Source: Escherichia phage JEP8. Taken from it: a stretch of DNA of 64,000 nt. Under the pieces are notes generated by a model. That model did not search any database. It saw only the letters and a list, made by a program, of their open reading frames with translations, and had not been told where the DNA came from. The DNA is taken from the sequence record MT764208.1, one strand, 5' to 3'. Shown piece after piece: positions 1 to 62,490 of this stretch; positions within the stretch are counted from its first letter, which is position 1; every line of letters starts with the position of its first letter. The position numbers were made by a program, and so were the translations under genes.

Positions 1-208
1 TATTGTTAAAATTAGAAACATACTAATAACGCCGATCAGTGGAGTCGTCAAAACTACTGGTCCTACTTCATTTGGTGTTAATGGTGTTAGAACAACTCAT
101 ATTCAGGATAACGGTGATTTTACTAACCCTGTAATGAGTCTTCTTAAGCTGCCTAGAGACAATAAACATATCACATCCAACAACTTTAAAGAGTTCGATG
201 TTGATTAA
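1..208 (+). CDS. 3-prime fragment of a tail-fibre gene upstream of gp36 (possibly gp35-like); open frame from the window edge to TAA at 206-208
   Basis: Frame 2 is open from base 2 to the stop; position immediately upstream of the gp36-like gene; no start in window. Confidence 0.4.
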   Translation, partial: IVKIRNILITPISGVVKTTGPTSFGVNGVRTTHIQDNGDFTNPVMSLLKLPRDNKHITSNNFKEFDVD

Positions 209-370
209 CATTTTTTTACAAGCCGATCCATGTGGTCGGCTTTATTTTTATACAGTTGGTTAAAATGTAACCAAAACGAAGAAAGATCTTTAGAATAATA
301 GAAAATTTGTTTCGGTTAAAAATTAGTCAGTGCCTACGGCACGTCGCGAAGCGATATTTTGTTAACATTC

Positions 371-378
371 TATAAATA
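371..378 (+). promoter_or_regulatory. T4-type late promoter box TATAAATA
   Basis: Exact TATAAATA about 34 nt upstream of the gp36-like ATG, followed by GAGG Shine-Dalgarno. Confidence 0.55.
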
Positions 379-411: not shown

Positions 412-1902
412 ATGGCAGATTTGAAATATGGATCTACTGTAGGTGGATCTCCCATTTGGACGCAAGGAAACTTGACGATCCAGCCAGCAGGGGATCAGCT
501 TTTCTACAAAGGTCATAAAATCTATACCGCTTTTGATAGACCTTCGGCTACCGATTTTGATGCTGTTAGTGCATCCGAAGGTGGCACATTTCAAAAGCAA
601 GTTCATTTCGAGGAAGGTTTAAGCGTAGGTAGCGCATCGGCTGGAGAAACCAAAAAGAATGGTATCTTTAAAGGTCAGAGTGATGCTGCTAATTTTGACG
701 GTGTAAGCTGGGGTTTGCATTCATGGAAGTCAATAGGCTTTGTTAATGCCCGTGATGGCGTTATTATGGCGTATATTGACACCACAACGGGCGAATTTAA
801 GTCTAAAGGGACTATCGAAGGGACAACCATTAAAGACACAGGTCAACGCGTCTATAGCCCTGTTAATAAACCAACGAATAATGATTTAGATTTGGTGTCT
901 CGTCGCGGTGATACTCTCACAGGAACATATAATTTAAACACTGTCACTGTTAAACTATCGGTTGATTCTAAATTAATTGCAAGGGAACGTGATTTAATTA
1001 ATTTTGATGCGACTAAGATCTATTATGGTAACGTTCTTGATACGTTGGTCTTCCGAAGTAAAGATGAGCCTACCATTTTTGTTAATGGCAGAGAAGGTCG
1101 TTTTTATCACACCAATAATAAACCAACTAAAGCCGATGTTGGGCTAGGCAATGTCACCAATGATGCACAGGTTAAACGTGCTGGTGATATTATGGAAGGT
1201 AACTTGCAAGCGCCTAGAATGTTGGCGACAAACGATCCTGCTGGTCCGAATGAATTGGTTCGTTTGAGCTACTTTGAGAGAAAATCAATGGTAGCAAATC
1301 CAACCATCATTGGAAACGTTGATTGGAACACTCTTATTAATCGCGGTATCTATCGTGTGGAAAATGCTGGGTCGGGTACTAATAAACCGTCTGATAGCTA
1401 TTATAACGGCGTTTTGATGGTATATCGCCCAGAAGATGCGGTCGGTACTCGTCGAATTGTTCAGGTGTATTATCCTGAATCTATTGACCATCCGATGTGC
1501 TGGCGTTCTTGTTCTAATGAATCATGGACTGCATGGAACTATGTAGATCACCGTAAATTAGCCGATATTCGCTATGTTAACGTAACTGGCGATACCATGA
1601 CAGGACCGTTAACTGTTCCGGCTGCAAACGGTGTTAGAACGGCTAAAACTAACTATAACGGGGATAACTGTTATGCGGCGTTAAGCGGTGCTGATGGTAC
1701 TGCTATGATTCACCGCATTAGTGATATTAAAGGGACCGAAAAGCTGGGGATCACCCATGACTCAAAGGTCGTGTTTTTCCGTTCTAGAAACAATACTCAA
1801 ACCGTGGACCGCTATCAGCTTTATCATGAAGGTAATAAACCTACTCCGGCTGATGTTGGAGCGGTTCCACTTAATGCGGTGATTGATTTTGGTACTTTCT
1901 AA
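412..1902 (+). CDS. 36: long tail fibre protein gp36-like (496 aa, longer than T4 gp36)
   Basis: N-terminus MADLKYGSTVGGSPIW resembles recalled T4 gp36 MADLKVGSTTGGSVIW; sits directly before gp37. Confidence 0.7.
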   Translation: MADLKYGSTVGGSPIWTQGNLTIQPAGDQLFYKGHKIYTAFDRPSATDFDAVSASEGGTFQKQVHFEEGLSVGSASAGETKKNGIFKGQSDAANFDGVSWGLHSWKSIGFVNARDGVIMAYIDTTTGEFKSKGTIEGTTIKDTGQRVYSPVNKPTNNDLDLVSRRGDTLTGTYNLNTVTVKLSVDSKLIARERDLINFDATKIYYGNVLDTLVFRSKDEPTIFVNGREGRFYHTNNKPTKADVGLGNVTNDAQVKRAGDIMEGNLQAPRMLATNDPAGPNELVRLSYFERKSMVANPTIIGNVDWNTLINRGIYRVENAGSGTNKPSDSYYNGVLMVYRPEDAVGTRRIVQVYYPESIDHPMCWRSCSNESWTAWNYVDHRKLADIRYVNVTGDTMTGPLTVPAANGVRTAKTNYNGDNCYAALSGADGTAMIHRISDIKGTEKLGITHDSKVVFFRSRNNTQTVDRYQLYHEGNKPTPADVGAVPLNAVIDFGTF

Positions 1903-1907
1903 TTTTA

Positions 1908-1930
1908 GCGGGGATTATCTCCCCGCTTTT
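1908..1930 (+). terminator. GC hairpin GCGGGGA-TTATC-TCCCCGC plus T-run between genes 36 and 37 (partial terminator or processing site)
   Basis: Perfect 7 bp stem followed by TTTT. Confidence 0.4.
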
Positions 1931-1972
1931 CTAAATAATGTTATTCTAATAACCGTTTAAGGATTTTATAAA

Positions 1973-4741
1973 ATGGCAGATTTAAGCAGAATCCAATTTA
2001 AACGTACTAGCACTAAAGGCCGTCGACCTGATGCTGGTACGATGAATCCGGGGGAATTGGCAATCAACCTTGCGGATCAATATCTTCTTACTAAAAATGA
2101 TTCCGGTGCTATTATCAATTTAAGTTGTCCTCCGGTTTATGACCGCGATGTTACAATGGCAGGTAAGGTTAAAGGTAATAATTATATCTTAAGTAAAACC
2201 GCTAACTATCTGGAAGATCAGACAGCGCGAGATCTTAACTACTTTGGTGCTTTCCGTACCAATGGTCTTGATGGTTTTCTCGAACTCACGCTAAACGTTC
2301 CTCATTCTTCTGGTGTTCAGCATGGTCGAGGATTTACTTTCCAGTATGGACACACTGGATCGCGTGTAGAAACTTATGGCTATAATAAAGAAGGTCAAAA
2401 AGCATTTAGCTATAAAATGTATCATGAAGGTGATAAACCAACTCCAGGAGAATTGAACGTTTATAGCAAACAAGAAGTTGACCGTATGTTTGTTAAGAAC
2501 GTTAAACTTGCTACATCTCCTAGTGATATCGTTGAAGGCTATTTTAAATTAGCAACTGCAATGATTCCACAAAACGGTCTTAGCGTATTTTTCCGTATTC
2601 ATGGTGGTAACGGATATAACGTTACTGCATACGATCAAGTTGATATTGTAGAAATTGTTATTCGCAGTGGAAATGGTCGCCCTAAAGGTGTTAACGTTAT
2701 TGCATATCGCCGAAATACAAACAAATCATTTGATGTTTTGGCTGTTAATACTTCTGGTGATAACTATGATATCTATGTGAAATATCAGCGTTACACTGAT
2801 AACGTTATTGTTGAATTTGGTAAAAGTGTTGGTGTTAATCTGGTAGTTCATGACGTTCCAGATTTTGTTGCTGATCGTCCTGCTGGCGATAATGTTATTG
2901 GCGGTCGCGCGGTAACTCTTTTTAATACTGAAAATAAACGTGGTGTGTTAAGTTTTGATGATAACACACAAAACAGCTATGACATTGTTCACTTGAGTAA
3001 TGATAGGGGTACAGGACGAAAATATATTCGTAAATTCCGTAGCAACTATAATGAAATGATCTGGCATGAGACGGTTCAAGGTGCTACTTATCGTCTGGCT
3101 ACTGGTGCAACTGATGTTCAGGATATTCTAACCGTTGAATCTGTTAGCTCAATTTCTGGAACTCATAAAGGTAATATTACTTCTGGTCGTATGCTGTTAA
3201 ATGGTGGTAGTAATGTTATTACCTTGCGGCGTCCTGCTGGTCAATCCAACCATATTGCGTTTCAAGATAATCGTACTGGAGATATTACCCGTCAAGGATG
3301 GATCGGTTATGCCAATGCTAATACTAACGTTTTTGAATGGTATAGTGATGTAGGTGGCAGTTCTATTCGTCAACATATCGACGGACAGATCGAATTTCAG
3401 ACAGGTAGCATGAAGCGAGTTTATACTAACGGACAATTCATTTCATTATATGCCGATGGCTTCCGTACTGTATATGGTAACTATGGTTCATGGTGGCGAA
3501 ATGACGGTAGTAACGTTTATCTGATGAGCACAAAATCAGGCGACACTATGGGTCCGTGGAATACCTTTAGGCCGTTCATCTATAGCCTAGCCAATGGTAA
3601 CGTTACATTGGGGGGTAGTGATGCTGGCAACCATTTAATGCGTCTCAATAATGAAAGTAAACGAGTTGAAGTGAACGCAACCACACATCTTGGAAGCAGA
3701 CTGTATTGGGAACGTAACGACGAAGGATCGAAATCTGTATTCTTTGTTAAATCTTGGGGTAATGAAACTCGCGCTCAAGTGTGGGAACTTGCAGACGAAA
3801 CAAGCTATCATCTATATTCTCAGCGTGATTCTAACGGATCGATTCAATTTCGTGTTGCTGGTAGTTTGGAAACTGGAGGCCGCGCCCAGATTAATGGCGA
3901 TTTGGTCGTTACTAATGTTCTTCGTACAAATAACCAAATACAGATTTATAGAGATAACAACAAAGAGATCTGGTTTAAAGATGCTAATGGTACTAACCGT
4001 GGTGTTATCTGGGGAGATGGTGGCGGCAAAATGAGATTGCGTAACTATTCTGGTGGAGAATATGACCATGTGTTCGAAGCTGGTATGATTCGCCTTGAGC
4101 GTGGTTACGCCAATGGACAAGGTGCTGGGTTGATTCGCGGAGAAGTACAAGGTGGAGCATGGTCTGAATGGAGAACTCGCGCTGCTGGCTTATTGGTTGA
4201 CTGTCCAAATGCTCAAACTTCCGCATATAACGTATGGAAAGCGACCAAATGGGGTTTAGACCACATCGCGGCAATGGGTGTTCATGTTCCTAACGGTAAT
4301 GTTGGTAACTCTATTGCGCGTCTGCATGTTGGTGGCACTAACTTTGACTTTAACGCCTCCGGTGATTTCCAGGCAGGTCGTAACGGTAATTTTAACGATG
4401 TTTATATTCGCTCTGATGCTCGCCTTAAAATCAATAAGGAAGAGTATAAAGAGAATGCCACCGATAAAGTTAATCGCTTGACTGTGTACACCTACGATAA
4501 GGTTAAGTCTTTGACGGACCGCACTGTTATCGCTCATGAAGTTGGTATTATTGCTCAGGATCTTGAAAAAGAATTGCCGGAAGCAGTAACAACTTCTAAG
4601 ATCGGCGATCCTGATAAGCCAGAAGAGATCTTAACAATTTCTAACTCTGCTGTCAACGCTCTTTTAATTAAGGCGTTTCAGGAAATGAGCGAAGAATTGA
4701 AAGCCGTTAAAGCTGAACTAGCGGAACTTAAAAAGAATTAA
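1973..4741 (+). CDS. 37: long tail fibre distal subunit gp37 with C-terminal intramolecular chaperone (peptidase S74-type) domain
   Basis: N-terminus MADLSRIQFKRTSTKGRRPDAG..GELAINL resembles T4 gp37 MATLKQIQFKRSK..GELAINL; last 108 aa carry SDARLK..IAQDLEKELPEAV as in endosialidase/T5 fibre chaperone domains. Confidence 0.85.
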   Translation: MADLSRIQFKRTSTKGRRPDAGTMNPGELAINLADQYLLTKNDSGAIINLSCPPVYDRDVTMAGKVKGNNYILSKTANYLEDQTARDLNYFGAFRTNGLDGFLELTLNVPHSSGVQHGRGFTFQYGHTGSRVETYGYNKEGQKAFSYKMYHEGDKPTPGELNVYSKQEVDRMFVKNVKLATSPSDIVEGYFKLATAMIPQNGLSVFFRIHGGNGYNVTAYDQVDIVEIVIRSGNGRPKGVNVIAYRRNTNKSFDVLAVNTSGDNYDIYVKYQRYTDNVIVEFGKSVGVNLVVHDVPDFVADRPAGDNVIGGRAVTLFNTENKRGVLSFDDNTQNSYDIVHLSNDRGTGRKYIRKFRSNYNEMIWHETVQGATYRLATGATDVQDILTVESVSSISGTHKGNITSGRMLLNGGSNVITLRRPAGQSNHIAFQDNRTGDITRQGWIGYANANTNVFEWYSDVGGSSIRQHIDGQIEFQTGSMKRVYTNGQFISLYADGFRTVYGNYGSWWRNDGSNVYLMSTKSGDTMGPWNTFRPFIYSLANGNVTLGGSDAGNHLMRLNNESKRVEVNATTHLGSRLYWERNDEGSKSVFFVKSWGNETRAQVWELADETSYHLYSQRDSNGSIQFRVAGSLETGGRAQINGDLVVTNVLRTNNQIQIYRDNNKEIWFKDANGTNRGVIWGDGGGKMRLRNYSGGEYDHVFEAGMIRLERGYANGQGAGLIRGEVQGGAWSEWRTRAAGLLVDCPNAQTSAYNVWKATKWGLDHIAAMGVHVPNGNVGNSIARLHVGGTNFDFNASGDFQAGRNGNFNDVYIRSDARLKINKEEYKENATDKVNRLTVYTYDKVKSLTDRTVIAHEVGIIAQDLEKELPEAVTTSKIGDPDKPEEILTISNSAVNALLIKAFQEMSEELKAVKAELAELKKN

Positions 4742-4781
4742 GGAAACTCCCAGGGAAGGGAACTACTAAGGAGAAACGGCT

Positions 4782-5021
4782 ATGGTCTATAATATCGTCA
4801 TTGGCGCTTTGTCTAATTTCGGAATGAAATTATTGTCAAAGTTAATTAGTGAAAAGATGCTCACTAAAATTTTCTTCTATTGCGCTCGTCGTCTTGCGGC
4901 TTATACCAATACGCCAATTGATGATCGTTTTGTGGAAGAACTTTATAAGGAGTTTAATAAAGATCAGTCAGAAGATAGTAACGAGCAAGATAAATCTAGT
5001 GATAGTCAACTACCTAAATAA
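4782..5021 (+). CDS. small hypothetical protein (79 aa) between gp37 and holin
   Basis: AAGGAG Shine-Dalgarno 8 nt upstream of ATG; hydrophobic N-terminus, acidic C-terminus; no recognised homolog. Confidence 0.45.
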   Translation: MVYNIVIGALSNFGMKLLSKLISEKMLTKIFFYCARRLAAYTNTPIDDRFVEELYKEFNKDQSEDSNEQDKSSDSQLPK

Positions 5022-5054: not shown

Positions 5055-5711
5055 ATGCAAGTTTCTGAAAAAGGGAAAGACTTTGCTATCTCAAATGTCC
5101 TGCGCGCTATTTTCACAACTAAAAGCACGGAGTTGCTCGTACTTCGTGTTTTTGCTGCCGTCGTGTTGTCTATATTGGCATTTGTCGTTTATAGTAAAAA
5201 CGAGTTATTTGCGCTTTATAAAGAGACTCGTTATGAGACTTATGCTCACATTCTCCAGGTAGAGAAAGACCGCAATTTTGATAATGCAGCACAGGAGCAG
5301 TTACAGATAGTTCATGTGTCGGCTGATGCCGATTTTTCTGCTGTTTTTAGTTTTCGTCCGAAAAACCTAAACTATTTTGTTGATTTGGTGGCATATGAAG
5401 GAAAGCTACCACATACAATCGATGAAAAGAATTTAGGCGGATTCCCTATCAATAAAACGAGTGAAGAATATCGTAGACATCTTTTAGGTAAATCATATTT
5501 TACCGATAAAGATTTCCAGTATATTCCATCAAGAGAAAAGAAATTAGAGAATATCGATATAGGTTTCATGTATTCTTGTCCTATATTCAATCTCGATAAT
5601 GTCTATTCTGGTAGTATCGCCATTTCATGGAAGAATAAACCGGATATTGACATTGAGAATTTAGATACTCTTTGCAATCAATCTGCCAGAATCCTCGGAA
5701 GGATTAGATAA
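5055..5711 (+). CDS. t: holin t (218 aa)
   Basis: Same length as T4 holin; shared blocks EQLQIVH, SADADFSAV.SFRPKNLNYFVD, AYEGKLP, YSCPxFNLDN, ARILGR. Confidence 0.9.
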   Translation: MQVSEKGKDFAISNVLRAIFTTKSTELLVLRVFAAVVLSILAFVVYSKNELFALYKETRYETYAHILQVEKDRNFDNAAQEQLQIVHVSADADFSAVFSFRPKNLNYFVDLVAYEGKLPHTIDEKNLGGFPINKTSEEYRRHLLGKSYFTDKDFQYIPSREKKLENIDIGFMYSCPIFNLDNVYSGSIAISWKNKPDIDIENLDTLCNQSARILGRIR

Positions 5712-5716
5712 CTTAA

Positions 5717-5748
5717 AGGGGAAGCCTTTCGGCCTCCCCTTCTTTTTA
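5717..5748. terminator. bidirectional rho-independent terminator between convergent genes
   Basis: AGGGGAAGCC-TTTC-GGCCTCCCCT hairpin flanked by A-run and T-run. Confidence 0.55.
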
Positions 5749-8007: not shown

Positions 8008-8766
8008 TTACTTGCAAACGTATTGGTCTACATCAATTGCTCCACCGAATGTAGGATGACGTTTTTCAAATCGAATAGTTCCGTCGTTTGGTTCGAAAAC
8101 GGAGTATTCATATAGATCTTTCTTGCCAACATTCTTATAAAACCCGCCTTTAGTCATAACGGTTTCTTGTACGTTTGCTTTGTGTACGTTGTATTCATCA
8201 ATGTATACAAAATCAACCATCTTCCCATTTTTAATTGTTACTTTAAGATCACCCGGTTGATTTCCATATTTGGCATACAGTGGCGCTTCTTTAATTTTTG
8301 TGGAAATTCCATCTTTCATACTCCACTCATAACGAACGGTGCATTGATAGGTAAAAGTTTCGACCTTCGGTTCTTCTACCACTTTTGCTTCCTGTTTCTG
8401 TTGTTCTTCTTCAACCTTTGCAGAAGTCTCTGAATCGCTTTCTGACGAGGTTTCTTCTTTAGGTAATACATTCATCAAGTTTTGGATTTGAGCGTTATAT
8501 ACAGCCTCCAGTGGCTGAATCTGCCCGATATTGATCATTGTATCACGAACAGTTTTATTCCAGTTTCGTTGCTCTTGTTTCAGAGACGGATCAATCTTAA
8601 CAGCCTTAACATACACTTCATGAAGTTTAGAGTCCAGTGCGGAGATAGACTCATTAGCACAAATAAACTTCTCTGATTTGGTAGTAGCTTTAGCGCAATC
8701 AAAGGACGCAGCATTAGCACCGAAAGCAGTAGCGGAAAGAACGATAGCAGCGATAATGTTTTTCAT
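8008..8766 (-). CDS. secreted protein with LprI/DUF1311-like (lysozyme-inhibitor-like) N-terminal domain
   Basis: Signal peptide MKNIIAAIVLSATAFGANA then SFDCAKATT..EKFICANESISALDSKLHEVY..QRNW, the two-Cys DUF1311 pattern. Confidence 0.6.
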   Translation of the reverse strand: MKNIIAAIVLSATAFGANAASFDCAKATTKSEKFICANESISALDSKLHEVYVKAVKIDPSLKQEQRNWNKTVRDTMINIGQIQPLEAVYNAQIQNLMNVLPKEETSSESDSETSAKVEEEQQKQEAKVVEEPKVETFTYQCTVRYEWSMKDGISTKIKEAPLYAKYGNQPGDLKVTIKNGKMVDFVYIDEYNVHKANVQETVMTKGGFYKNVGKKDLYEYSVFEPNDGTIRFEKRHPTFGGAIDVDQYVCK

Positions 8767-19125: not shown

Positions 19126-19869
19126 TCATTCTCCGTCAGTTCGTTTCAGGTATTCCAACGCTGCATATAGTCTTTGCGGATCGTCTTTGAACATTCCTAA
19201 TCCGGCGTTACATTTTCCACAAAGAACACCTCTTATCTTACCAGTCTTATGATTATGGTCAAGATGTTTCCACTTTTGGCGTTTTCTCTCGCCGCATCGT
19301 TCATTTATGAATTTTACACCGCATATCTCGCAATTGTCAACTCTGTCTAAAATTTCTAACGCTTCTCGTTTTGTTATTTTTATACCATCTTCGGCGTGGT
19401 GATATGGTCTATCTAGTTCTCGTTCTCGTTTCTCAAACAATCGACACTCATCAGAACAATACTTTTGAGATGCGTTTATTGCAACAAATGGTTTACCACA
19501 TTTAGCGCATTCTCGTTCAATCTTTATGTTTTGTGCCTGATCCAACGATGCGCAACGAGAACAGCAAAATTTATGATAGCCTCTAGAGTATGTATGATAA
19601 TTTACAGGATTTGGGCATCTTGCACATTTAACTATTCCTGTTATTCCGTGGCGCAATCTATAAACAGCCTCGTTATATGGTTGTTGATTTCTGAGACCTC
19701 CATTACAGAACTTAAACTCATTCCTTATAATCTGAAATTCCGCAGGATACAATTTTTCCATTTCTGGAATTTTATTTTCTTTAAAAAGATTTGAGTTTAG
19801 TCTATTTCCGCTTTTCGCCTCCAGAACATCAACAATAAACTTTTTGATGTTCACTTTTTCTCTCTCCAA
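19126..19869 (-). CDS. putative homing endonuclease: zinc-finger N-terminus plus endonuclease VII-like domain (start TTG/GTG uncertain)
   Basis: Several CxxC pairs; C-terminal HLDHNHKTGKIRGVLCGKCNAGLG matches the endonuclease VII/HNH motif. Confidence 0.6.
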   Translation of the reverse strand: MEREKVNIKKFIVDVLEAKSGNRLNSNLFKENKIPEMEKLYPAEFQIIRNEFKFCNGGLRNQQPYNEAVYRLRHGITGIVKCARCPNPVNYHTYSRGYHKFCCSRCASLDQAQNIKIERECAKCGKPFVAINASQKYCSDECRLFEKRERELDRPYHHAEDGIKITKREALEILDRVDNCEICGVKFINERCGERKRQKWKHLDHNHKTGKIRGVLCGKCNAGLGMFKDDPQRLYAALEYLKRTDGE

Positions 19870-29261: not shown

Positions 29262-29290
29262 ATTTTACTACTTTAATTATTCTATGTCAA
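29262..29290 (-). promoter_or_regulatory. sigma70-like early promoter (-35 TTGACA, weak -10 TAAAAT)
   Basis: 17 nt spacer. Confidence 0.35.
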
Positions 29291-30053
29291 CAAATTTCCA
29301 ATTTGGAAAGTCTGGACACATACAACGACGGCGAACGGTTCCGCGCTCGTTTCCTAGTACCTTAGATACTTCCGATACAGATTTATAGATCACACCATCA
29401 ACAGATACAGCCTTTCGGTCTTTTCTGTTTTGTTTCTTGCTCTTTTCTCGTCTGGCTTCGACATTCTCCGAATCATTCCATTGTCTCTTTGCTGTCTCGC
29501 GGGAAGATATTGTCTTTTGTTCTTTAACAATATCTTTAACAAGTTGTTCTTGTCCTGTTATCTTCGCCCACACATTAACAGACTGAATAGCATTAGCCTC
29601 ACTCATTCCCCAACGTTTACCGGATATATTCTTACGACGAACGCGTAGAAATTCGTTAAAGACTTCTTCGCATTGGTGCATATAATCACGAAAACCATAT
29701 TTCTTAGCCCATGCCTCTTTAATTGCACCAGACATATTTTCGGCAATACGTCTACGCACCCATGCATACTCCTTATTATTGCGACCGTGACTGGTCATAC
29801 ACATCATACGTGCAGCCATAATAAGACCAACATTCTTAGGATACATTTTAGCTAACAATAAGTGAGCGGTAAAGTGTTCCTCCGGTGTCAATGGAACGAG
29901 ATTTTCCTGTTCATCCGTGCCGCCCATACAACGTGGTTTAACGTGATGGATCTCTATGTATCCGGTCGGCTTCTCTCGGTTTCTTGCTCGTTCAATCAAT
30001 CTTTCGTAATGTGTTTTGTAGTTCATGTGATCCTCCATATGAAAAAGGGGCAT
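29277..30053 (-). CDS. free-standing HNH homing endonuclease (true start may be an internal ATG at 30026)
   Basis: EIHHVKPRCMGGTDEQENLVPLTPEEHFTAH is a classic HNH motif; inserted between uvsX and the gene 40/41 block. Confidence 0.75.
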   Translation of the reverse strand: MPLFHMEDHMNYKTHYERLIERARNREKPTGYIEIHHVKPRCMGGTDEQENLVPLTPEEHFTAHLLLAKMYPKNVGLIMAARMMCMTSHGRNNKEYAWVRRRIAENMSGAIKEAWAKKYGFRDYMHQCEEVFNEFLRVRRKNISGKRWGMSEANAIQSVNVWAKITGQEQLVKDIVKEQKTISSRETAKRQWNDSENVEARREKSKKQNRKDRKAVSVDGVIYKSVSEVSKVLGNERGTVRRRCMCPDFPNWKFVDIE

Positions 30054-61346: not shown

Positions 61347-62126
61347 TTACACGCGAGCACCGTAGATCGTGCCTACTTTATCCCAGCGAGGGGCATTGCC
61401 AGTAACAGCCTTACCAGCCGCTCCGCCATTATATTCCGATCCCCGTCCACGGATATTACATTTACCACCAGCGCCACCAGCATCACCACCGTTACCGCCA
61501 TTATATACACCGTTGACAGACCCTTTACCTGGCGCGGAAATAGTACCAGCAGTAGCACCCTGTTCCATTTTAGCAGACCCACCAGCAGCGCCAAATGGAC
61601 GACCGCCGCCACCTCCAAAAGTCAATTTCATTTGTGGAAAAGGAGACCAGTATCCTCCGCCACCACCACCACCGCCACCGCAAATAGCGCCGTTATTTGT
61701 GATGCGTAAGCGTGTGCCTATACCGTTGTTAATTGCATTACCACCAGCACCACCAGCGGAGTTATTGCCACCATTACCACCACGCCCCCAAACATGAACA
61801 CCTGCATTAATGATCAATGTTACATATTCGTTTGTTAACGAGCTAGGGAAGTCAAGACAAGGAACGCCAGTAGATTGGGAAACAATATTACCCGTGATAG
61901 TAATTACTACCGGAGTAGATCCTTGTGCTTTCATCCAGTTAATAAGAGTGTCTTTATTGTAAGAGTTACTAGCACCAATGCTATAATGAATCTCTTTAGA
62001 GCGTCCGACCATTGCCGACATATACGCCGGACGACCTAAGCGTACAGCTTGCATTGCGGCGCTCATCCACCGTTGACCAGTCTCGGACACCGCAGATGAT
62101 CCTACCCATCCAGAAGATATTGCCAT
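61347..62126 (-). CDS. 38: gp38-like tail-fibre adhesin (T2-type receptor-recognition protein with glycine-rich motifs), ectopic
   Basis: N-terminus GWVGSSAVSETGQRWMS resembles recalled T2 gp38 GWIGSSAVNETGQRWMS; GRGGNGG, GGGGGGGGGY, GGGGGRPFG glycine-rich motifs; about 259 aa. Confidence 0.7.
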   Translation of the reverse strand: MAISSGWVGSSAVSETGQRWMSAAMQAVRLGRPAYMSAMVGRSKEIHYSIGASNSYNKDTLINWMKAQGSTPVVITITGNIVSQSTGVPCLDFPSSLTNEYVTLIINAGVHVWGRGGNGGNNSAGGAGGNAINNGIGTRLRITNNGAICGGGGGGGGGYWSPFPQMKLTFGGGGGRPFGAAGGSAKMEQGATAGTISAPGKGSVNGVYNGGNGGDAGGAGGKCNIRGRGSEYNGGAAGKAVTGNAPRWDKVGTIYGARV

Positions 62127-62142
62127 AAAATTTCCTCACAAG

Positions 62143-62162
62143 AAAAGCCCCAATTAAGGGGC
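62143..62162 (-). terminator. hairpin GCCCC-AATTAA-GGGGC plus T-run upstream of the gp38-like gene
   Basis: 5 bp GC stem. Confidence 0.4.
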
Positions 62163-62180
62163 ATTGATTGATAATATTAC

Positions 62181-62402
62181 TTAGATGACCTCTGCTTCAC
62201 CATCCAGGAAGAAAGACCATGTTTTGTTAGGATAGCGAAGCGCCCATGATTCAGCAGTTTTAACACCAGCTTCGAACAATTGACGGCTGGTTACTTTAGC
62301 CATACCATCTTCGATGGCAACGTTTTCAATAATCATCGGGTACTTAGCGCCACGCATGAAACCGAAACCAGCGGAAGATTTGATAATTTTAACAGTTGCC
62401 AT
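62181..62402 (-). CDS. hypothetical protein (73 aa)
   Basis: AGGAGA Shine-Dalgarno. Confidence 0.5.
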   Translation of the reverse strand: MATVKIIKSSAGFGFMRGAKYPMIIENVAIEDGMAKVTSRQLFEAGVKTAESWALRYPNKTWSFFLDGEAEVI

Positions 62403-62490
62403 TTTTGATTCTCCTAGAAAGTGTATCTCGTTTCGATGTGTGTATTATGCAATAACACCGGAACGCTGTCAACACTTTCTAAGAAAAATT

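Follow-up and report, generated by a model that had tools for sequence, protein, structure and literature searches.

The long-tail-fibre region of Escherichia phage JEP8 (sequence record MT764208.1) is, with a probability of about 0.95, the standard, published fibre locus of the Krischvirus phages, with a displaced gene 38 and a gp37 of the S74 type. The region quite likely represents the distal half of an RB49-like long-tail-fibre operon, the 3' end of which is fused to a two-gene lysis unit. The architecture of the locus is already known, and the displacement of gene 38 and the homology of the small reading frame to P18 of phage PM2 were published between 2002 and 2011.

The window, which is the whole 64-kb stretch of DNA that was analysed, is 93-96 % identical at the nucleotide level to the Krischvirus phages RB49, Phi1, JSE and GEC-3S, and all four carry the order 35-36 (496 aa)-37-small ORF-t. 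They have the gene order, the length of gp36, the 79-residue ORF, the holin gene t and the displaced gene 38 in common with JEP8, at a nucleotide identity of 93-98 %, and the differences are allelic only; gp37 has 922 residues in JEP8 and GEC-3S versus 980 in Phi1. The coding sequences of gene 36, the 79-residue ORF and t in the annotations of Phi1 and GEC-3S are identical in length to those on the ORF map of JEP8. Strong homologues were found for all three reading frames from gene 36 to the 79-residue ORF (3/3), which are thus real genes (Table 1). A preliminary description, made from the sequence alone, had called this locus rearranged. The order 35-36-37-x-t is intact, however, and is also that of T4 (36-37-38-t), in which the holin gene likewise follows the fibre genes; gene 38 alone has moved and is still present in the window. 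The 496-residue gp36 and the 79-residue ORF, both regarded as peculiar at that stage, are standard among all close relatives.

Table 1 Features of the long-tail-fibre locus of JEP8 and of the displaced gene 38 (positions in the window)
Feature	Position	Strand	Evidence or remark
Gene 35, 3' end (proximal hinge connector, long tail fibre)	1..208	+	Aligns with the end of the gp35 CDS of Phi1 and GEC-3S; stop codon TAA at 206-208
Terminator-like hairpin and U-run after gene 35	220..242	+	-12.6 kcal/mol, z -3.96
T4-type late promoter box TATAAATA	371..378	+	34 nt upstream of the gene 36 ATG
Gene 36, distal hinge connector, 496 aa, start MADLK	412..1902	+	T4 gp36 similarity; phrog_16472
G+C-rich hairpin and U-run between genes 36 and 37	1907..1927	+	-14.8 kcal/mol, z -3.64
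Near-consensus late box TCTAAATA (one mismatch)	1930-1937	+	Follows hairpin 1907..1927
Gene 37, distal fibre subunit, 922 aa, start MADLS	1973..4741	+	T4 gp37-like N-terminus
gp37 C-terminal Peptidase_S74 intramolecular chaperone, aa 814-922	4412..4738	+	PF13884
79-aa ORF, PM2 P18/gp l family (PF26925 Phage_PM2_Gpl; very likely)	4782..5021	+	phrog_402 5e-20; precomputed PF26925; hhalign
Gene t, T4-type holin, 218 aa	5055..5711	+	Pfam Phage_holin_T 4.5e-61; phrog_860
Operon-closing hairpin, U/A runs on flanks, between convergent genes	5716..5741	.	-17.7 kcal/mol, z -1.17
Gene 38, T2/S16-type receptor-binding adhesin, 259 aa	61347..62126	-	Pfam GP38 and Gp38_N

Fibre proteins of JEP8

The gp36 protein is, as had been pointed out, more than twice as long as that of T4 (496 versus 221 residues). 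Its first 171 residues are homologous to T4 gp36 (BLASTP, 37 % identity, E 1e-29), residues 172-215 of the T4 protein align to residues 251-294 of JEP8 gp36 (BLASTP), and the C-terminal end, DFGTF, keeps the T4-like terminal DFGxF/Y motif. The Pfam model Phage_T4_gp36 (PF03903) gives the protein 21.4 bits, which is below the gathering score of 26; a precomputed match to this model is present on close relatives. The modules that are added with respect to T4 comprise residues 172-250, a globular insert at approximately 297-380, and residues 400-496. PHROG matches to the modules were obtained, and two recurring junction motifs, Y-x-x-x-N-K-P-T-x-x-D and G-D-x-M-x-G, mark the module borders. The extra ~275 residues are added fibre modules, one of them a globular insert, and the N-terminal T4-like domain, which docks onto gp35, has been kept.

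An artefact of annotation or assembly, such as a fusion of gene 36 to a neighbouring fragment, could in principle produce an oversized gp36, and the difference in size from T4, but nothing else, points that way. The explanation can practically be dismissed: gene 36 forms one ORF without interruption, the length of which does not differ between genomes that were sequenced independently, the proteins of relatives at 50-64 % identity comprise 492-508 residues, phrog_16472, a family of 496 positions, matches gp36 over its full length, and T4-like landmarks have been kept at both the N- and the C-terminus.

The structure model of gp36 is poor overall (pLDDT 49.5), and no structure of the protein is detectable in the PDB by sequence. 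A "pyocin knob" was sought in residues 285-400, and no match was obtained in Pfam, NCBIfam or the PDB sequences. Fibres of E. coli prophages that are labelled "pyocin knob domain-containing" align at residues 133-269 of gp36, outside the insert. The knob-like reading of residues 297-380 draws on the PHROG module matches and on Foldseek matches of low TM score to 6cl5 and 6cl6. As these low-TM matches are all that remains, the insert is called a globular fibre module and is tentatively regarded as knob-like.

The gp37 protein resembles its T4 counterpart in the first 71 residues (46 % identity). Residues 435-537 form a trimerisation module of the gp34 type (Pfam Gp34_trimer, 7.5e-24), and the protein matches PDB entries 4uxe and 5yvq. 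The N-termini of gp36 and gp37 were originally described as alike. They have only MADL in common, and BLASTP finds no N-terminal similarity, the sole match between the two proteins being an internal YHEGxKPTP motif (E 3e-4); a like coincidence exists in T4, with MADLK versus MATLK. At the C-terminus of gp37, the Peptidase_S74 model, with a cut-off of 22 bits, scores 45.1 bits over residues 814-873, and the S74 region aligns to the equivalent chaperone region of S16 gp37 in the structure of the T2/S16-type fibre tip (6f45_A, E 0.0011). RB49 gp37 is reported to have a self-cleaving chaperone (PMC9569957). By analogy with this protein and with the family, self-cleavage of JEP8 gp37 is predicted between S814 and D815, at the putative Ser-Asp junction IRS814-D815-ARLK, and S814 is probably the last residue of the mature shaft; just ahead of this site, no sequence match of the shaft to the PDB is detectable. 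Because gp37 ends in a Peptidase_S74 chaperone domain, a chaperone of the T4 gp38 type is not needed. The fibre chaperone that had been reported missing from the locus is thus accounted for by the C-terminal domain of gp37 itself. T4 gp37, in contrast, carries a needle tip and has no S74 domain. By simple arithmetic, gp36 and mature gp37 together amount to ~1310 residues, close to the 1247 of T4; any functional meaning of this near-equality would be putative.

In T4, gene 38 is located at the fibre locus and encodes a chaperone, and in T2 and S16 it directly follows gene 37. The gene 38 of JEP8 is found on the other strand at a distance of 56 kb from the fibre locus, in a hyperplastic early-gene region, a position that has been kept in GEC-3S, Sf20 and other relatives. 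Its product matches the Pfam families GP38 (PF05268; 5.4e-73, 245.9 bits) and Gp38_N (PF21721; 3.9e-18, 65.6 bits) as well as phrog_2056 (2e-101), and residues 1-256 align with gp38 of S16 (PDB 6f45_D, E 9.2e-50). The protein has both an N-terminal domain for attachment to gp37 and a C-terminal receptor-binding domain with glycine-rich motifs, and poly-Gly motifs can be recognised in its translated sequence. The displacement of gene 38 in RB49 has been described, with publications dating from 2002/2011 (PMC3157838), and gp38 is reported to be the receptor-binding protein of RB49 (PMC9569957). The fibre of JEP8 is of the T2/S16 kind and not of the T4 kind: gp37 would fold with the aid of its own S74 chaperone, and the tip exposed in this way would then receive the separate adhesin gp38.

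The 79-residue reading frame upstream of the holin gene

The ORF in the slot of gene 38 is, as first reported, unrelated to gp38, giving no GP38 match in the Pfam scan, and it is preceded by a strong Shine-Dalgarno sequence (AAGGAG at 4768-4773, 8 nt before the ATG). The hydrophobic N-terminus that had been attributed to its product turned out to be amphipathic, without a transmembrane segment. The maximum Kyte-Doolittle value over 19 residues is 1.31, versus 2.86 for the transmembrane domain of the neighbouring holin T; the helix holds conserved Lys residues, the net charge is -1 and the tail is acidic. Neither a signal peptide nor a lipobox cysteine nor a transmembrane domain was found. The model of the protein predicts three helices and an acidic disordered tail. 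When it was compared with viral structures by Foldseek, the only significant match was to its own orthologue, followed by weak ones to small proteins of cyanophages and Vibrio phages.

The ORF is present at an amino acid identity of at least 90 % in 58 phage records. It was not found by tblastn in Tequatrovirus records, and T4 is without a P18-like ORF. Local Pfam and NCBIfam scans with E values up to 10 gave no family match and no similarity to the T4 chaperones gp38 and gp57A, and all PHROG matches were to families without an assigned function. PF26925 (Phage_PM2_Gpl) is listed for the close relatives and for 69 of 69 homologues, and the assignment of the ORF to this family rests on these precomputed hits, the local copy of Pfam being without that model. 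An alignment of the 35-sequence ORF family with PM2 gp l by hhalign gave a probability of 87.8 % and an E value of 3.3e-6 over 42 columns, both partners being short helical proteins. The core E...A..LA...T..D(D/N)E is common to the ORF family and PM2 gp l, and P18 homologues in RB49 and Felix O1 were listed by Krupovic and Bamford 2007 (PMC1950889). Judged by these similarities, membership of the ORF in the PM2 P18/gp l family is very likely. PM2 P18 (gp l, the product of gene XVIII) is a soluble or amphipathic protein. Like the JEP8 protein, it is small, helical and devoid of a transmembrane domain, and its gene stands at the end of a late operon, where it adjoins a holin(-like) gene. PM2 gp l has 51 residues; some 10 residues at the N-terminus of the JEP8 protein have no counterpart in it, and neither has the acidic tail. 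PM2 possesses neither spanins nor a T-type holin, whereas Krischvirus has both.

According to the passages on PM2 lysis in PMC9502842 and PMC1950889, which cite Krupovic 2007, P18 is required for disruption of the outer membrane at lysis; the passage in PMC9502842 places this step after permeabilisation of the cytoplasmic membrane. The ORF abuts t in JEP8 and follows lysozyme genes elsewhere, and it is therefore read as a lysis gene and not as a fibre chaperone. In a Shewanella prophage and in Vibrio-type phages, homologues come immediately after Phage_lysozyme genes, and another directly follows the gene of a 1112-residue lysozyme-domain protein. The product would most likely be an accessory factor of late lysis that acts beside holin T, as homology and gene neighbourhood suggest. 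By analogy with P18, the odds are a little better than even that it acts at the outer-membrane step of lysis in this phage.

A dedicated assembly factor or chaperone for the tail fibre, which had been considered for the gene 38 slot, would fit the position of the ORF, which is next to gene 37, is not separated from it by a terminator and has its own strong ribosome-binding site. Trojet et al. speculate on such a function for small ORFs downstream of gene 37 in other phages (PMC3157838). The homologue of Felix O1 follows a tail-fibre gene and precedes a gene whose product combines a transmembrane domain with a coiled coil, and those of Cronobacter A24 and Aeromonas LAh_6 lie among tail genes; in all three phages the homologue is within or at the end of a structural module, with no recognisable lysis enzyme adjoining it. 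An assembly function is nevertheless improbable, as gp37 already has its S74 chaperone and a lysozyme gene precedes the homologue in four other lineages with no fibre gene nearby. In addition, the homology of the family is to a genetically defined lysis protein (hhalign; PMC1950889). In the divergent relative L016, the ORF stays directly upstream of t, as in JEP8, although gp37 is an unrelated protein of 524 residues of the Gp10_C type without S74. The proposal that the ORF travels with S74-type fibres was rejected on the same L016 protein and on the Felix O1 fibre, which has neither S74 nor C-terminal similarity. Since this fibre and JEP8 gp37 have no C-terminal module in common, the ORF does not travel with the type of fibre.

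The location directly upstream of t in both JEP8 and L016 would also suit a regulator of holin T on the cytoplasmic side, which would affect timing or resemble an antiholin. In PM2, gene l overlaps the holin-like gene k at the end of the latter, and the JEP8 protein shows no signal peptide, no lipobox and no transmembrane domain by which it could reach the envelope. In most other lineages, however, the homologue is paired with a lysozyme and not with a T-type holin, and the only genetic data on the family (PMC9502842, citing Krupovic 2007) put its action at the outer-membrane step. A regulator of this kind is thus considered unlikely, and the preferred reading of the ORF is a lysis gene that belongs to the PM2 P18/gp l family.

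The function proposed for the ORF is in the same third step of lysis, disruption of the outer membrane, as that of the spanins (T4 PseT.3/PseT.2 and lambda Rz/Rz1) and of the phiKT disruptin. Its product is neither a spanin nor a disruptin, because it lacks an N-terminal transmembrane domain and a lipobox and does not have the character of a cationic amphipathic peptide. The Krischvirus phage Phi1 has the spanins pseT.3/pseT.2, and for this reason an additional P18-like factor for the outer membrane would be redundant or needed under certain conditions only. No convincing o-spanin ORF with a lipobox was found beside the homologues at the Felix O1, Vibrio and Shewanella loci.

Transcription signals

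The observation that only one late box is present for the 36-37 operon was confirmed: TATAAATA has a single exact match in the whole window, compared with a mean of 5.9 in shuffled sequence. By its agreement with the T4 consensus, it is a putative working promoter. Upstream of gene 38, neither exact boxes nor boxes with one mismatch were found within ~690 nt. The hairpin after gene 35 is also in the list of the terminator scan, and both it and the hairpin between genes 36 and 37 are annotated as terminators in GEC-3S. The hairpin after t is weak on its own, because its z value is only -1.17, and the GEC-3S annotation has it as a bidirectional terminator.

As judged from these signals, the single late promoter would serve gene 36, gene 37, the 79-residue ORF and t in succession; the hairpin between genes 36 and 37 would be leaky, and the terminator after t would end the transcript. 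The 36/37 hairpin could also be a true terminator, which would count against an operon with one promoter. Transcription of gene 37 would then have to start from a promoter of its own, for which the one-mismatch box TCTAAATA is the only candidate.

Meaning for the Krischvirus phages

Two further possibilities, which taken together are doubtful, are that the P18-like protein is a conditionally essential factor for the outer membrane and that the insert of gp36 is a secondary glycan-binding site. The P18-like protein may constitute a third factor of outer-membrane disruption in a T4-like coliphage already equipped with spanins, and it might act on the LPS layer, which is stabilised by divalent cations, through the acidic motif T-x-T-P-x-D-D-E that is conserved in the protein. 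If true, this would be a widespread and unrecognised class of lysis proteins in Krischvirus, in Felixounavirus and in many phages of Vibrio, Aeromonas and Shewanella. A glycan-binding site in gp36, if true, could help to explain the use of several O antigens by RB49-like phages with one small gp38 adhesin.

As a discovery, the locus is of small importance, and its practical value is in annotation. Homologues of the 79-residue ORF are "hypothetical" throughout the databases (391/391 phage records), and these records could carry the label 'PM2 P18/gp l-like putative lysis protein'. For the host-range engineering of therapeutic Krischvirus phages, it matters that the receptor-binding gp38 is encoded away from the fibre locus.

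Gene order and transcription signals of the fibre locus

By megablast, the window belongs to the genus Krischvirus and shares 93-96% identity over 6 kb with GEC-3S, RB49, Phi1, JSE, and ~80 other records. The ORF map gives all four genes of the region the same orientation, and in the annotations of Phi1 and GEC-3S the order is that of JEP8: 34, 35, 36, 37, a hypothetical ORF of 240 nt, and the holin gene t. In both of these annotated phages gene 36 is 1491 nt long and specifies 496 aa; gp37 is 922 aa in GEC-3S and 980 aa in Phi1. A gp36 of 496 aa and this small ORF, which had been presented as signs of a rearranged locus, are therefore the norm in the closest relatives of JEP8. The observation was genuine, and the feature itself is ordinary and previously described.

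Features of the fibre and putative lysis genes in JEP8, with ORF79 of Felix O1
Feature	Position	Strand	Product	Remarks
End of preceding ORF	206-208			Stop codon, upstream of gene 36
Hairpin terminator	220-242			Between preceding ORF and gene 36
Gene 36	412-1902	+	496 aa
Strong hairpin with U-run	1907-1927			Between 36 and 37; -14.8 kcal/mol, z -3.6
Gene 37	1973-4741	+	922 aa
79-aa ORF	4782-5021	+	79 aa
Holin gene t	5055-5711	+	218 aa
Hairpin	5716-5741			3' of t; bidirectional terminator in GEC-3S annotation
Gene 38	61347-62126	-		Complete T2/S16-type adhesin; Pfam GP38 5.4e-73, Gp38_N 3.9e-18; PDB 6f45_D 9e-50
ORF79 of Felix O1	5187-5552 (Felix O1 locus L004)		121 aa	One N-terminal transmembrane segment, coiled coil; i-spanin-like or holin-like

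As the preliminary description had it, a single late box precedes the 36-37 operon: the T4-type box TATAAATA occurs at 371-378 and nowhere else in the 64-kb window. Shuffles led to an expectation of 5.9 copies on both strands of positions 1-64000, and 72 one-mismatch variants were present where 126 would be expected. The box is thus underrepresented in this region, most of which is early/middle and on the minus strand. One such variant, TCTAAATA, directly follows the hairpin between genes 36 and 37, and a fold scan of the gap between gene 37 and the small ORF revealed no hairpin. The simplest reading of these signals would be one late transcript starting from 371-378, with partial read-through of the hairpin at 1907-1927.

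Elsewhere on the minus strand, the early region of this lytic phage contains a 252-aa ORF (8008-8766) whose N-terminus looks like a signal peptide and in which Pfam recognises an LprI (lysozyme inhibitor) domain (7.7e-6). Two putative mobile or nuclease genes were also seen on this strand (29277-30053 and 19126-19869), one of 258 aa that carries an I-TevI DNA-binding domain and one of 247 aa in which an endonuclease VII domain follows an N-terminal extension of ~160 aa.

Fibre proteins and the displaced gene 38

T4 gp36, the length of which had been correctly given as 221 aa, aligns to aa 1-171 (37% identity, E 1e-29) and aa 251-294 of JEP8 gp36, and both proteins end in DFG plus two aromatic/hydroxyl residues (DFGTF in JEP8, DFGYY in T4). 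Of the reported likeness between the gp36 and gp37 N-termini only the common MADL holds: BLASTP of the two proteins found no N-terminal alignment, and the T4 proteins show the same coincidence (MADLK/MATLK). The motifs Y-x-x-x-(N/D)-K-P-T-x-x-D (four copies, at aa 37, 148, 231, and 470) and G-D-x-M/L-x-G (three copies, at aa 166, 258, and 393) together delimit the modules. The monomer model is of low overall quality (pLDDT 49.5), which is expected because the fibre is trimeric; three beta-rich segments are better defined (aa 180-245, aa 297-380 with pLDDT 67-84, and aa 431-488). Residues 285-400 match internal stretches of six other tail/tail-fibre PHROG families. The top Foldseek matches of the model, with low TM-scores, were the C-terminal region of T4 gp34 and R1/R2 pyocin fibres; sequence searches did not confirm a pyocin-knob identity. 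An artefact as the source of the oversized gp36 was ruled out: full-length relatives at 50-64% identity are 492-508 aa, so the large gp36 is a stable family. Up to S814 of gp37, JEP8 gp36 and gp37 provide ~1310 residues per chain versus 1247 in T4 (221 + 1026), so that the extra length of gp36 roughly makes up for the shorter mature gp37.

Neither gp38 nor a gp57-like chaperone had been seen after gene 37. Residues 1-71 of gp37 are 46% identical to T4 gp37. The protein ends in an intramolecular chaperone domain of its own (Peptidase_S74, S74; aa 814-873; 45 bits, Pfam cut-off 22), which explains the lack of a chaperone gene at the locus, and its final 110 residues can be aligned to the equivalent stretch of gp37 of Salmonella phage S16 (PDB 6f45). 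A scan of the window's remaining mid-sized ORFs uncovered a complete gene 38, at a position conserved genus-wide; the displacement was described for RB49 by Trojet et al. (PMC3157838). In RB49 the gp37 chaperone is described as self-cleaving, and genetic evidence identifies gp38 as the receptor-binding protein (Efimov et al. 2022, PMC9569957). Taken together, this makes it a T2/S16-type fibre whose adhesin gene has been relocated.

The displaced gene is surrounded by small early-type ORFs. A GCCCC-TTAATT-GGGGC hairpin with a U-run lies immediately upstream (62127-62475 region, minus strand) and a near-consensus sigma-70 promoter, TTGACA-N17-CATAAT, one ORF further upstream; the arrangement is similar to that of the PeSL elements known from RB49 and Phi1. 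Neither exact nor one-mismatch copies of TATAAATA were found within ~690 nt upstream of gene 38. In Karamvirus and RB16/RB43-type phages, annotated distal fibre subunits of ~737-820 aa with Gp34_trimer and S74 domains (P0093-P0158) match the gp36 N-terminus over their first ~50 aa at ~50% identity; the gp35-docking module has therefore been shuffled between gp36-like and gp37-like proteins.

The P18-like ORF next to the holin gene

The strong AAGGAG site noted before the 79-aa ORF is present at 4768-4773. Its N-terminus, described as hydrophobic, is rather an amphipathic helix in which lysines are conserved; hydropathy over 19 residues peaks at 1.31, versus 2.86 for the transmembrane segment of holin T. 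An AlphaFold model shows three helices and a disordered acidic tail (mean pLDDT 67). Local Pfam and NCBIfam copies gave no match, and the PHROG matches are families of unknown function only. Using tblastn, the ORF was found at at least 90% identity in 58 Krischvirus records, with diverged homologues (30-47%) in Felixounavirus and in Erwinia, Vibrio, Aeromonas, and Cronobacter phages. Every homologue in a large protein database is assigned to PF26925, named Phage_PM2_Gpl in contig annotation. When the 51-aa gp l of PM2, which is protein P18, was compared by hhalign with 35 aligned family members, 42 columns matched with 87.8% probability (E 3.3e-6), and the E, A..LA, and T..D(D/N)E residues that are conserved fell in register. 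In PM2, P17 functions as a holin and P18 is needed for outer membrane disruption, according to a passage of PMC9502842 citing Krupovic et al. 2007.

The ORF adjoins t in JEP8, and a metagenome contig of a divergent relative (L016; gp36 64% identical) has a large gp36 too and keeps the P18-like ORF beside t, with gp37 replaced by an unrelated 524-aa protein. This protein (1722-3296) has a Gp10_C domain and no S74, an example of wholesale distal-fibre replacement. P18-like ORFs lie directly 3' of a lysozyme gene in a Shewanella prophage, Vibrio-type 40-kb phages, and another contig. On contig L011 (1663-5219), the gene of a 1112-aa Phage_lysozyme-domain protein overlaps by one base at its end with the start of the P18-like ORF that follows; this large protein is possibly a lysin that is virion-associated or ejected. 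In Felix O1 the homologue is directly upstream of ORF79, whose product combines a transmembrane domain with a coiled coil; a search around ORF79 for a partner ORF with a lipobox found none. Cronobacter A24 and Aeromonas LAh_6 depart from this pattern, the homologue being among tail genes in both. We infer that the 79-aa product most likely serves as an accessory protein in lysis, with its ORF on the same transcript as t. Krischvirus also has the pseT.3/pseT.2 spanins, so its contribution to lysis may be conditional. The interest that is left concerns the function of P18-like proteins in tailed phages, the gp36 insert, and the expression of the displaced gene 38.
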